DNA of 64,000 nucleotides from Escherichia coli (GTDB lineage Bacteria > Pseudomonadota > Gammaproteobacteria > Enterobacterales > Enterobacteriaceae): assembly GCF_003991155.1 (NCBI RefSeq), contig NZ_CP031293.1; one strand, written 5' to 3'. The position numbers and the translations under genes are program-made. The notes under the pieces were generated by a model. That model was not told the DNA's origin. It searched no databases and saw nothing but the letters and a program-made list of their open reading frames with translations. Every line of letters starts with the position of its first letter. Position 1 is the stretch's first letter. Of the stretch, positions 15,209 through 48,200 are shown piece after piece.

Positions 15209-15307
15209 GCCGGATGCGGCGCGAACGCCTTATCCGGCCTACAAAAGTTTGCAAATTCAATAAATTGCAGAATTCATGTAGGCCTGATAAGCGAAGCGCA
15301 TCAGGCA
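15209..15307. repeat. BIME: two inverted REP elements (gccggatgcggcg...ccggcctac / gtaggcctgataag...catcaggca)
   Basis: Canonical REP palindromes in the pfkA-sbp spacer. Confidence 0.7.
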
Positions 15308-16505: not shown

Positions 16506-17408
16506 TTATGAAAGCATAGACCGTTTACCCTCCCTGGGTACGACGGAACAGGGGTCCTGATGGATAATCACATCCGATCCCGGAAAACGCCGTAAAATAG
16601 CCTGCTCTACCTGATCCGCCACCATATGTGCCTGAACCAAAGGCAGAGAGTCTTCCATTTCCAAATGAATCTGAATAAAGCGGGTCGGCCCTGACTGCCG
16701 CGTGCGAAGATCGTGAGCGCCGCTAACACCCGGCCAGGAAGTCACGATATCAATAATTTCTTGCCGTTCCTCATCAGGTAATGCGCGATCCAGTAATGAC
16801 TGTACCGCCTCATATCCCATGCGTAACGCGCTATATAAAATATAGATGCCGATTCCCAATGCAAACAGAGCATCGGCGCGATGCCAGCCGTACCAGGACA
16901 ACCCCAGCGCCAGCAGAATTGCGCCGTTCATCATAACATCAGACTGGTAATGTAGCATATCAGCCCGCACCGCCTGGCTTTGCGTCCGGCGCACCACCCA
17001 ACGCTGAAACGAGACAAGGATAATCGTACAAATTAGCGCCACAATTGTCACGATAACCCCGACGCCTGGATCTGTCATCGGCGTTGGAGATACCAGATGT
17101 TGAATACCTGTCAAAAACAGGAATAGTGCCGAACCGGAGATAAACATACTTTGCGCCAGCGCCGCGAGGGACTCAGCTTTACCGTGACCAAACGAGTGAT
17201 TATCGTCGGCAGGTTGCAGGGAATATCGCACCACCAATAAATTCGTCAACGACGCGCCGATATCCACCAGCGAATCCACCAGCGCGGCGAGAATACTCAC
17301 CGACCCGGTATACCACCATGCAAAAATTTTAATCAGCAATAGCAGCGAAGCCATCGCCGTCGCAGCAATCGCCGCCCGACTGACCAGCCGTCCATAAGAT
17401 TGATTCAT
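16506..17408 (-). CDS. fieF: Cation diffusion facilitator (Zn/Fe efflux) FieF/YiiP
   Basis: ORF track 16506..17450 trimmed to [32 protein letters not shown] (300 aa). Confidence 0.92.
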
Positions 17409-17492
17409 AAATACTCCCGCTATCAACTGACGGTAGTATAACGGAAGCAAATCATCTGCAATGCATTAAGCAGCAGGCAAATTGAGGATAAA

Positions 17493-17556
17493 AAAAACCC
17501 CCACATCATGTGGGGGAAGACAGGGATGGTGTCTATGGCAAGGAAAACAGGGTTTA
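17493..17556 (-). ncRNA. cpxQ: CpxQ-type sRNA derived from the cpxP 3' UTR, including the terminator hairpin (cccccacat-gatg-tggggg + U-run on the minus strand)
   Basis: Region directly downstream of the cpxP stop with a strong intrinsic terminator; assignment as CpxQ is from recalled K-12 knowledge. Confidence 0.5.
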
Positions 17557-18057
17557 CTACTGGGAACGTGAGTTGCTACTACTCAATAGCTTCAACGATG
17601 AACTTTTTTGCCATTGCGTCACGTCACGCAACTGCTCCATTCGTTGTTGATGTTTCTCATTTAAAACCGCTTGCTGCTCCGGCGTTAACAGGCGATACAT
17701 TTGGTTGCGGACTTTTGCCATCTCAACCTGACGAGCAATTTGCTCATTCGCCATTTTTTCTGCCTGTGCGCGCACAGCGTTTTCATCAAAATTTTCTGCG
17801 GTGACAAGGCGATGCATTGTCTCCAGTTCGCTAACATTAACAGGAGGCTGTTCGTGCCGGGCCTGTTGCATAAGATCTCGCATCTGCTGACGCTGATGTT
17901 CGGTTAAACTTATGCCGTCGAACATATGGCTCTGCGTACTGCGCTGCGTAAGTTCTTCACCCGGATGCCAGTTATCGCCTGAACCGACTTCAGCAGCGTG
18001 GCTTAATGAACTGACTGCCAGCGTTGAGGCCATGACGGCAGCGGTAACTATGCGCAT
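17557..18057 (-). CDS. cpxP: Periplasmic Cpx pathway inhibitor/adaptor CpxP
   Basis: 166-aa [27 protein letters not shown]... with LTxxQ motifs. Confidence 0.93.
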
Positions 18058-18136
18058 CATTTGCTCCCAAAATCTTTCTGTCGCGATTCAACGATAGAGA
18101 GTTTACGATTCAGGCTGCAAACATGCGTCAGGGGGT

Positions 18137-18151
18137 GTAAAACAACGTAAA
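18137..18151. promoter_or_regulatory. CpxR-P box (GTAAA-N5-GTAAA) in the divergent cpxP/cpxRA promoter region
   Basis: Exact tandem GTAAAacaacGTAAA in the intergenic region. Confidence 0.55.
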
Positions 18152-20275: not shown

Positions 20276-20291
20276 ACTCCGCATTGTAGGC

Positions 20292-21560
<1,269 letters not shown>

Positions 21561-30437: not shown

Positions 30438-30655
30438 GCCGGATGCGGCACAAGTGCCTTATCCGGCCTACGGGTCGGCAATAGTTGTAGGCCTGATAAG
30501 ACGCGACAGCGTCGCATCAGGCATTGATTGCCGGATGCGGCACGAGCGCCATATCCGGCCTACGGGTCGGCAATAGTTGTAGGCCTGATAAGACGCGACA
30601 GCGTCGCATCAGGCATTGATTGCCGGATGCGGCACGAGTGCCTTATCCGGCCTAC
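30438..30655. repeat. Tandem REP/BIME array, ~2.4 copies of a 92-bp unit each containing two inverted REP palindromes
   Basis: gccggatgcggcac...ccggcctacgggtcggcaatagttgtaggcctgataagacgcgacagcgtcgcatcaggcattgatt repeated with period 92 nt (copies start 30438, 30530, 30622). Confidence 0.8.
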
Positions 30656-45267: not shown

Positions 45268-48200
45268 ATGCAGGTCAGCAGAAGGCAGTTCTTTAAGATC
45301 TGCGCTGGCGGTATGGCAGGCACCACGGCAGCGGCACTGGGTTTTGCACCCAGCGTAGCACTCGCGGAAACCCGGCAGTATAAACTGCTGCGCACCCGCG
45401 AAACCCGTAATACCTGCACCTATTGTTCCGTAGGCTGTGGGCTGTTGATGTACAGCCTCGGTGACGGAGCAAAAAACGCCAAAGCATCTATCTTCCATAT
45501 CGAAGGCGATCCGGATCACCCGGTCAACCGCGGTGCACTTTGTCCGAAAGGCGCTGGCCTGGTGGATTTCATCCACTCCGAAAGCCGCCTGAAGTTTCCG
45601 GAATACCGTGCGCCAGGTTCTGATAAATGGCAACAAATCAGTTGGGAAGAGGCGTTTGATCGCATCGCCAAACTGATGAAAGAAGACCGCGATGCGAACT
45701 ACATTGCGCAAAACGCCGAAGGCGTGACTGTTAACCGCTGGCTCTCCACCGGGATGCTGTGTGCTTCCGCGTCGAGTAACGAAACCGGCTATTTAACGCA
45801 AAAATTCTCCCGCGCGCTGGGGATGCTCGCGGTCGACAACCAGGCGCGTGTCTGACACGGACCAACGGTAGCAAGTCTTGCTCCAACATTTGGTCGCGGT
45901 GCGATGACCAACCACTGGGTCGACATCAAGAACGCCAACCTCGTCGTGGTGATGGGCGGTAACGCCGCTGAAGCTCACCCGGTCGGGTTCCGCTGGGCGA
46001 TGGAAGCCAAAATTCACAACGGCGCGAAGCTGATTGTGATCGATCCTCGCTTTACACGTACGGCGGCGGTGGCTGACTACTATGCCCCTATTCGTTCCGG
46101 TACTGACATTGCTTTCCTGTCAGGCGTATTGCTGTACCTGCTGAACAATGAAAAATTCAACCGCGAATACACCGAAGCCTATACCAACGCCAGCCTGATC
46201 GTGCGTGAGGATTACGGCTTTGAAGATGGCCTGTTCACCGGCTACGACGCGGAAAAACGCAAGTACGATAAATCCAGCTGGACCTACGAGCTGGACGAAA
46301 ACGGCTTCGCCAAACGCGATACCACGCTGCAACATCCGCGCTGCGTGTGGAACTTGCTGAAACAGCACGTTTCCCGTTATACGCCAGATGTGGTTGAAAA
46401 CATCTGCGGTACGCCAAAAGACGCGTTCCTGAAAGTCTGCGAATACATCGCCGAAACCAGTGCTCACGATAAAACTGCCTCGTTCCTTTACGCGCTCGGC
46501 TGGACGCAACACTCCATTGGTGCGCAAAACATTCGTACGATGGCGATGATCCAGCTGCTGCTCGGCAACATGGGGATGGCAGGCGGCGGCGTTAACGCCC
46601 TGCGCGGTCACTCCAATATTCAGGGGCTGACCGACCTGGGGCTACTGTCGCAGAGTCTGCCAGGTTACATGACGTTGCCAAGCGAGAAGCAGACCGATCT
46701 GCAAACTTACCTCGCTGCCAACACGCCAAAACCACTGCTGGAAGGCCAGGTCAACTACTGGGGCAACTACCCGAAATTCTTCGTCTCTATGATGAAGGCC
46801 TTCTTTGGTGATAAAGCGACGGCGGAAAATAGCTGGGGCTTTGACTGGTTGCCGAAGTGGGATAAAGGCTACGACGTCCTGCAATACTTCGAGATGATGA
46901 AAGAGGGCAAGGTCAATGGCTATATCTGCCAGGGCTTTAACCCTGTTGCCTCATTCCCGAACAAAAACAAAGTGATCGGCTGTCTGTCGAAGCTGAAATT
47001 CCTCGTGACTATCGACCCGCTGAACACTGAAACCTCTAACTTCTGGCAGAACCACGGTGAGCTGAACGAAGTTGACTCGTCGAAGATCCAGACCGAAGTG
47101 TTCCGTCTGCCATCGACCTGCTTTGCGGAAGAGAACGGTTCAATCGTCAACTCTGGTCGCTGGTTGCAGTGGCACTGGAAAGGTGCGGACGCCCCGGGGA
47201 TTGCGCTGACTGACGGCGAGATCCTCTCCGGTATCTTCCTGCGCTTGCGCAAGATGTATGCCGAACAGGGTGGCGCGAACCCGGACCAGGTGCTGAACAT
47301 GACCTGGAACTACGCCATTCCGCATGAGCCATCTTCAGAAGAAGTGGCGATGGAGAGCAACGGCAAAGCGCTGGCCGATATTACCGACCCGGCAACCGGT
47401 GCGGTTATCGTCAAGAAAGGCCAACAACTTAGCTCGTTCGCCCAACTGCGCGATGACGGTACAACCTCCTGTGGCTGCTGGATTTTCGCCGGTAGCTGGA
47501 CGCCGGAAGGCAACCAGATGGCGCGTCGTGATAACGCCGATCCGTCTGGCCTCGGTAACACGCTGGGCTGGGCATGGGCATGGCCGCTTAACCGCCGCAT
47601 TCTGTATAACCGCGCCTCCGCAGATCCGCAGGGTAACCCATGGGATCCGAAGCGTCAGTTGCTGAAATGGGACGGCACTAAGTGGACCGGCTGGGATATT
47701 CCGGATTACAGCGCAGCGCCTCCGGGCAGCGGCGTAGGGCCGTTTATCATGCAGCAGGAAGGCATGGGACGTCTGTTTGCCCTCGATAAGATGGCGGAAG
47801 GTCCGTTCCCGGAACACTACGAGCCGTTTGAAACGCCGCTGGGAACTAACCCGCTGCATCCAAACGTTATCTCGAACCCGGCTGCGCGAATCTTTAAAGA
47901 CGACGCCGAAGCATTGGGTAAAGCCGATAAGTTCCCGTATGTCGGAACCACCTATCGTCTGACCGAGCACTTCCACTACTGGACCAAACACGCGCTGTTG
48001 AACGCGATTTTGCAACCAGAGCAGTTTGTGGAAATCGGGGAGTCGCTGGCGAATAAACTTGGCATTGCCCAGGGCGATACTGTGAAAGTCTCCTCCAACC
48101 GTGGCTATATCAAAGCCAAAGCGGTAGTGACCAAACGTATTCGCACGCTGAAAGCAAACGGCAAAGATATCGATACCATCGGTATTCCGATTCACTGGGG

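Follow-up and report, generated by a model that had tools for sequence, protein, structure and literature searches.

The cpxP-fieF locus

The 64,000-nt stretch of Escherichia coli DNA analysed here, referred to below as the window, contains the cpxRA-cpxP-fieF-pfkA region of E. coli, and the features of concern are collected in Table 1. The start of cpxP has been taken as in K-12, the list of open reading frames having an ATG 3 nt upstream of this at 18060. The gene ends with the stop codon TAG at 17559-17557, and the next codon in the frame, 17556-17554, is TAA. The 3' end of cpxP is thus marked by tandem stops TAG-TAA here, and Salmonella has TAA and then CAA at the same position. Directly after the cpxP stop the minus strand carries an untranslated tail of 67 nt, from 17556 to 17490, which runs through a hairpin into a U-run as the initial annotation of this DNA had described, and fieF starts further downstream on the same strand with an ATG at 17408, 81 nt past the U-run, close to the ~85 nt that had been estimated. 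The feature itself had been placed at 17493-17556, which is the right region, but these coordinates miss the last three U and take in the 9 upstream nt of the linker. Two open reading frames on the plus strand, 17508-17804 and 17510-17650, were dismissed as they are antisense to cpxP and have no support.

Upstream of cpxP, in the divergent promoter region that it shares with cpxR, the pattern GTAAA-N5-GTAAA has its single match in the 64-kb window, a perfect one at 18137-18151, with 0.11 matches expected by chance. We take this to be a CpxR site, and presumably it is the input that drives the cpxP-CpxQ transcript.

Other parts of the window also have matches to Rfam families. A SECIS_3 selenocysteine insertion element is found at 45850-45908 on the plus strand (84.3 bits), presumably within a formate dehydrogenase gene, and the ClpQY (hslVU) promoter element at 62-119 on the plus strand (63.6 bits). 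The sRNA ES036/CssrF is matched just downstream of pfkA at 15244-15285 on the plus strand (48.2 bits). There are three copies of naRNA4 (nucleoid-associated RNA 4, CssrE), at 20289-20366 on the plus strand and at 30490-30560 and 30582-30652 on the minus strand, all of which resemble REP-type repeats in intergenic regions.

Table 1. Features of the cpxP-CpxQ region and their positions in the window
Feature	Positions	Strand	Basis
Tandem CpxR box GTAAAACAACGTAAA, cpxR-cpxP divergent promoter region	18137..18151	+	pattern match
cpxP CDS, parental mRNA of CpxQ	17557..18057	-	ORF; 99.8% nt identity to K-12 cpxP; annotated in matching genomes
9-nt linker UAAACCCUG, cpxP stop to CpxQ 5' end	17548..17556	-	sequence; 5' end per K-12 annotation
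CpxQ sRNA (probable), 58 nt, UUUUCCUUGCCAUAGACACCAUCCCUGUCUUCCCCCACAUGAUGUGGGGGUUUUUUUU	17490..17547	-	K-12 and Salmonella identity
Single-stranded 5' region, nt 1-13, UUUUCCUUGCCAU, 5' seed	17535..17547	-	unpaired in MFE fold
Small internal hairpin, AGACA / loop CCAUCCC / UGUCU, nt 14-30	17518..17534	-	predicted fold; loop is the second pairing region
Terminator hairpin CCCCCACA-UGA-UGUGGGGG, CpxQ nt 32-50	17516..17498	-	fold and terminator scan
U-tail, eight U, nt 51-58, transcript 3' end, expected Hfq-binding tail	17490..17497	-	sequence; Hfq binding from literature
47-nt attachment core of WPhi-type P2-like phages, CpxQ nt 15-58 plus ATC	17487..17533	-	identical to attP
fieF, downstream neighbour, outside sRNA	16506..17408	-	ORF and matching genomes

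Identity of the cpxP tail

CpxQ is a small RNA of E. coli K-12 and Salmonella Typhimurium that was reportedly described by Chao and Vogel and by Grabowicz and colleagues, both in 2016, and the tail in the window has the same locus, length, 5' end context, small hairpin, terminator and U-tail. The K-12 RefSeq ncRNA cpxQ (b4716, NC_000913.3 4106330-4106387) aligns to window 17547..17490 with 57/58 identities, and in K-12 MG1655 cpxQ is annotated between cpxP and fieF, the order cpxRA-cpxP-CpxQ-fieF being common to the window and K-12. An alignment to K-12 CpxQ had been suggested as a check on the proposal that the cpxP 3' UTR is CpxQ, and with 57 of the 58 bases shared at the same locus the proposal is borne out. 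The sole difference is at 17506 in the terminator loop, where the window has A and K-12 has C, and as the change is within the loop no structural effect is expected. The A allele is also that of Salmonella, of the attP of phage WPhi and of 4192 E. coli genomes. A search with the 58-nt sequence finds a match in 5423/5426 complete E. coli genomes, 4192 of these 5423 being identical to the window and 1223 having one or two differences, from which it follows that the allele in the window is the prevailing one in E. coli and that of K-12 is in the minority.

Poor conservation between Salmonella and E. coli, which had been named as an argument against CpxQ, was not seen. In a comparison that drew on two Salmonella contigs from a phage collection, S. 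enterica Infantis and the window share 58/58 nt of CpxQ, as against 88.2% identity in the cpxP CDS and 66.7% in the spacer to fieF, which reproduces the report that the CpxQ region is better conserved than all other parts of cpxP (PMC9438474). All the defining features of CpxQ that can be tested on the sequence are found in the window. The 58-nt tail 17547..17490 on the minus strand, 3' of E. coli cpxP, is therefore the sRNA CpxQ, which would be processed from the cpxP mRNA, a reading to which we give a probability of about 0.97 and whose functional side is qualified for this strain because it is transferred by sequence identity. What lies after cpxP is an already known and well-studied small regulatory RNA, CpxQ itself and not a relative of it.

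Fold and terminator

The minimum free energy of a 69-nt stretch that holds the RNA is -17.4 kcal/mol (z = -2.32 against shuffled sequences), and in this fold a 5' region is left unpaired, followed by a small hairpin and the terminator. The fold and the terminator scan agree on a terminator stem of 8 bp, six of them G-C, with the 3-nt loop UGA. The GC hairpin and U-run of the initial annotation are thus real, but the 9-bp stem it proposed is not; the 19 nt do form a 9+1+9 palindrome, yet a loop of a single nucleotide is impossible and the stem therefore has 8 bp. With the criteria set strictly (at least 8 perfect pairs, at least 6 G-C and at least 7/8 T) the CpxQ terminator stands alone on both strands of the 64-kb window and 0 such sites occur in 30 simulated sequences, whereas a loose terminator scan is uninformative on its own, with 3 found against 2.2 expected.

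The 5' end and processing

The annotated 5' end of CpxQ is at CCCUG/UUUU (the slash marks the cut), which places the cut between 17548 and 17547, 9 nt past the stop, and the linker contains both the TAA stop and the half of the processing site that precedes the cut. It has been reported that cpxP is induced by CpxR-P and that RNase E, aided by Hfq, gives rise to CpxQ by cleavage of the mRNA close to its stop codon, and that mutation of the cleavage site abolishes CpxQ with little effect on the cpxP mRNA (PMC9438474). An rne-ts strain of E. coli loses CpxQ (10.1101/341578), and the RNA is unusually stable regardless of its 5' phosphorylation state (PMC10250213). A search for an RNase E site upstream of the hairpin had been proposed as a further check, and the context ACCCUG/UUUU provides a probable one. 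G/UUUUCC fits positions +1 to +3 of the motif RN/WUU, including the critical U at +2 (motif: 10.1101/341578), and the -2 position is U, not the purine of the motif. The context is also conserved: among the matches listed in the species comparison described below, the upstream ACCCUG is kept in at least 110/114 loci though it was outside the search pattern, as is CCC at -5..-3 (at least 110/114), with A at -7 in 101/114.

Processing of this kind is shared with a number of other small RNAs. SdhX, NarS, GlnZ, SroC and MicL-S are likewise released by RNase E from an mRNA 3' end, through a cut close to the stop codon, and in common with CpxQ they keep the parental terminator, have 5' monophosphates and link regulation of the parental gene to that of other mRNAs. 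CpxQ differs from them in its parent gene, its seeds and its targets, and its parent mRNA is monocistronic.

Conservation in the Enterobacterales

A DNA-pattern scan of species-representative genomes with 20 specified bases from CpxQ gave at least 120 loci, a sample that cannot reveal lineages with diverged or lost sequence since those bases served as the bait. Four of the loci listed are chance matches, L027, L082 and L122 being without a U-run and L119 having a U-run in unrelated sequence. This leaves at least 116 cpxP-linked copies in species of the Enterobacterales, each with a U-run of at least 6, in genera that include Citrobacter, Klebsiella, Enterobacter, Yersinia, Dickeya, Brenneria, Lonsdalea, Pantoea, Erwinia and Mixta. 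Wherever the upstream flank sufficed cpxP was found directly upstream, with CpxP protein identity ranging from 98% to ~47%. The length of the RNA is 58 nt in 79/117 U-run matches listed, a count that includes the chance match L119.

It is apparent that the two ends of the RNA are conserved in different ways. Nucleotides 1-31 are almost invariant, the bases left free by the pattern included (50 distinct sequences from 116 species among the matches listed), and nt 1-13, the 5' seed, are invariant in the alignment of the 50 sequences. The small hairpin is predicted in all 50 distinct homologues, with the exact form of 5 bp and a 7-nt loop in 95/116 loci listed, and it is without covariation support because its sequence is almost invariant. 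The terminator, by comparison, has 22 distinct pairs of stem arms among the matches listed, such as CCCCCACA/UGUGGGGG, CCCCCUCA/UGAGGGGG, CCCCGCC/GGCGGGG and GCCCUCC/GGAGGGC, all of which fold into 6-9 pairs. When each distinct sequence is folded the stem is seen to vary by paired substitutions only, that is, to covary. Folding of each distinct sequence replaced a column-based covariation analysis on a MAFFT alignment, which was unusable because the loops differ in length and the terminator arms thus fall out of register. Seeds that are constrained in sequence together with a terminator constrained in structure only is the pattern expected of an sRNA.

Targets and proposed mechanism

Two conserved seeds of CpxQ repress nhaB, skp, agp, ydjN and fimA (PMC9438474; 10.1101/271551), and further targets are cfa (10.1101/271551) and fadL (10.1101/2024.10.18.618624). 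By lowering Skp, CpxQ of E. coli prevents the insertion of outer-membrane proteins into the inner membrane (PMC4817254). Binding to and dependence on Hfq have also been reported (PMC9438474; PMC4817254), and the module that would be expected for this, a terminator hairpin with a U-tail, is present in the window. Nucleotides 18-25 (ACCAUCCC) complement GGGAUGGU beside the Shine-Dalgarno sequence of the K-12 target skp, a match equalled in 65/2000 shuffles, and nt 5-13 can pair with K-12 nhaB at +307..+314, with U7 opposite G312, as in PMC10250213. Sliding duplex energies of nt 1-31 against K-12 nhaB and skp were discarded as target evidence as they were no better than shuffles, with shuffled sRNAs equal in 46 and 41 of 100 respectively. 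The checks on seed pairing are no more than consistent with the published targets.

From these observations and the literature the probable course of events in this strain can be outlined. Envelope stress would activate CpxR, which would switch on the cpxP promoter through the CpxR box at 18137-18151, and the transcript would stop at the intrinsic terminator at 17516..17490. RNase E would then cleave at G/UUUU, 9 nt past the stop, to give an RNA with a 5' monophosphate. The freed RNA would have a single-stranded 5' seed, a second seed in the hairpin loop and, for the binding of Hfq, a terminator that ends in a U-tail. Together with Hfq, it would pair with the nhaB, skp, cfa and fadL mRNAs, the resulting repression leading to less load on the inner membrane.

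A phage attachment site within CpxQ

Most of CpxQ is also part of a phage attachment site. All 47 nt of window 17533..17487 are found unchanged in the attP of WPhi and in the attL and attR of the lysogen NZ_CP075627.1, and the same core is common to WPhi, L-413C, fiAA91-ss and ~50 other P2-like phages. Copies were located at L002:20168-20214, L004:3798-3844, L007:1501-1547 and L003:16045-16089, the last of these being a P2-like genome, circular and 32 kb in size, that was deposited as a 'plasmid' and has 45/47 of the core nucleotides. The overlap of CpxQ nt 15-58 with the phage core is shown by these sequences. In the window the core is empty, with no prophage there. Alignments to the cpxP-fieF region break off at 17487, three bases past the U-run, in ~836/5426 E. 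coli genomes, and the site is lysogenic in ~15% of complete E. coli genomes. In NZ_CP075627.1 a P2-like prophage begins with its integrase at the equivalent of 17487 and ends with ogr before fieF, and as the same core is in attP, attL and attR, CpxQ is still complete at the attL of a lysogen, and a second, partial copy comes to lie before fieF. In the paper on the E. coli W genome the site of Wphi1 is given as 'cpxP-fieF' (PMC3032704), and our literature search found no paper that connects this 'cpxP-fieF' phage site with CpxQ.

The arrangement is akin to that of P2, which has a site in the gene of the sRNA cyaR, and to the sites in tRNA and tmRNA genes, where the integrase core likewise extends over the 3' part of a small RNA gene and the phage copy restores the gene on integration, as at CpxQ. 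It differs from these sites in that the RNA here is a 3'-UTR-derived sRNA. It can be imagined that with each integration the CpxQ hairpin, terminator and Hfq tail are remade from the DNA of the phage and a partial copy with no promoter is left before fieF, and that, if crossovers swap the cores, phages spread terminator alleles between genera and might alter the dosage of CpxQ or read-through into fieF; we regard this chain of events as conceivable but rather unlikely.

Some of the distant hosts are of note in this regard. Four loci (L109, L066, L101, L108) have a CpxP that is <70% identical to that of E. coli yet have the exact E. coli-type terminator; three of the four have ATC after the U-run, two of the four are followed by phage-like DNA, and the integrase at L109 is 67% identical to that of WPhi. 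A tblastn search with the WPhi integrase downstream of CpxQ gave 3 matches in the species sample listed. The ATC of the core is seen in 3/4 distant hosts with an E. coli-type stem and in 12/46 of the others, counts that are small, and some lysogens have other types of stem (L018, L052). The four loci hint that a phage may bring in a CpxQ 3' end of its own, the numbers being too small for more than a hint.

Alternative explanations

The simplest alternative is that the tail is the intrinsic terminator of cpxP and nothing more, with no function as an RNA of its own. A strong hairpin and U-run are exactly what a terminator needs, but this leaves unexplained the 31 nt upstream of the stem, which are almost invariant in at least 116 species when the stem, the CDS and the spacer vary. 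Moreover, the K-12 annotation is that of an ncRNA, phenotypes of its deletion have been published (PMC4817254), and a stable Hfq-bound RNA of ~58 nt together with derepression of targets on deletion has already been reported for both K-12 and Salmonella, all of which makes a terminator without further function very hard to credit. Alternatively CpxQ could be transcribed independently from a promoter of its own inside the end of cpxP, as are MicL or DapZ, and some 3'-UTR sRNAs do arise in this way (10.1101/341578). However, a scan of the minus strand for promoter-like sites gave none just upstream of 17547 within cpxP, the RNA begins with U, which is a poor initiating nucleotide, and when CpxQ is expressed from a promoter the transcript begins a few nt further upstream (PMC10250213). 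The loss of CpxQ in the rne-ts strain and on mutation of the cleavage site (10.1101/341578; PMC9438474) is also at odds with a separate promoter, and such an origin is highly improbable.

A different kind of objection concerns the conservation itself, which might come mainly from use of the site by phages, with phage copies overwriting the host sequence and selection on the sRNA being minor. That the 47-nt WPhi-type core spans nt 15-58, that ~15% of E. coli genomes are lysogenic at the site, and that ATC is more frequent in the distant hosts with an E. coli-type terminator (3/4 against 12/46, on few loci) would all fit such a history. Yet invariance or conservation is also seen beyond the core, in nt 1-14 and the upstream ACCCUG, and most of the species listed have GCC and not ATC after the U-run, with fieF directly downstream and stem variants of their own. 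As the main cause of the conservation, phage use has only the slightest chance of being correct; it could add to the explanation by sRNA function but cannot replace it. CpxQ processed from the cpxP mRNA is thus the preferred reading of the tail.

Hrs1 and the annotation of CpxQ

At the gathering threshold Rfam has no CpxQ match on the window. A permissive search of the tail gave a single family, Hrs1 (RF02628, Hfq-regulated sRNA 1), at 44.5 bits against a cut-off of 56.4, and this match is at window 17490-17562 on the plus strand, opposite cpxP. Four Erwinia-type loci (L046, L053, L086, L112) match Hrs1 at 59-69 bits, again always opposite cpxP, and the consensus of the model begins with poly-A and continues into a hairpin, as a terminator does when it is read backwards. 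The hrs1 of Erwinia amylovora was described as a 74-nt Hfq-regulated RNA with a terminator, located between cpxP and fieF and encoded on the same strand as cpxP, and was called Erwinia-specific (PMC4070566). Hrs1 (Zeng & Sundin 2014) is thus like CpxQ in lying between cpxP and fieF, and the Erwinia-type loci have the conserved 5' region of CpxQ, so that the label 'Erwinia-specific' of 2014 is contradicted by the CpxQ alignment. The matches on the opposite strand, the poly-A consensus and the strand given in the source paper together indicate that Hrs1 is probably the CpxQ of Erwinia modelled in reverse; that is, RF02628 appears to be an orthologue of CpxQ modelled as its reverse complement. 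The window falls below the Hrs1 cut-off because the model is reversed and its seed is from Erwinia only, and not through a biological difference.

Among the E. coli genomes shown, CpxQ is annotated in the curated K-12 record only, and in the others (e.g. H16-H39) the RefSeq/PGAP annotation leaves the CpxQ sequence without a feature.

Implications

For the biology of CpxQ there is nothing new in this analysis, which shows that a known 3'-UTR sRNA is recognisable from sequence alone. Automated annotation misses CpxQ, and a corrected and merged Rfam family would annotate it across the Enterobacterales. The site used by prophages of the WPhi, L-413C and fiAA91-ss type is inside an sRNA gene, and this is relevant when Cpx-response phenotypes are compared between lysogens and non-lysogens.
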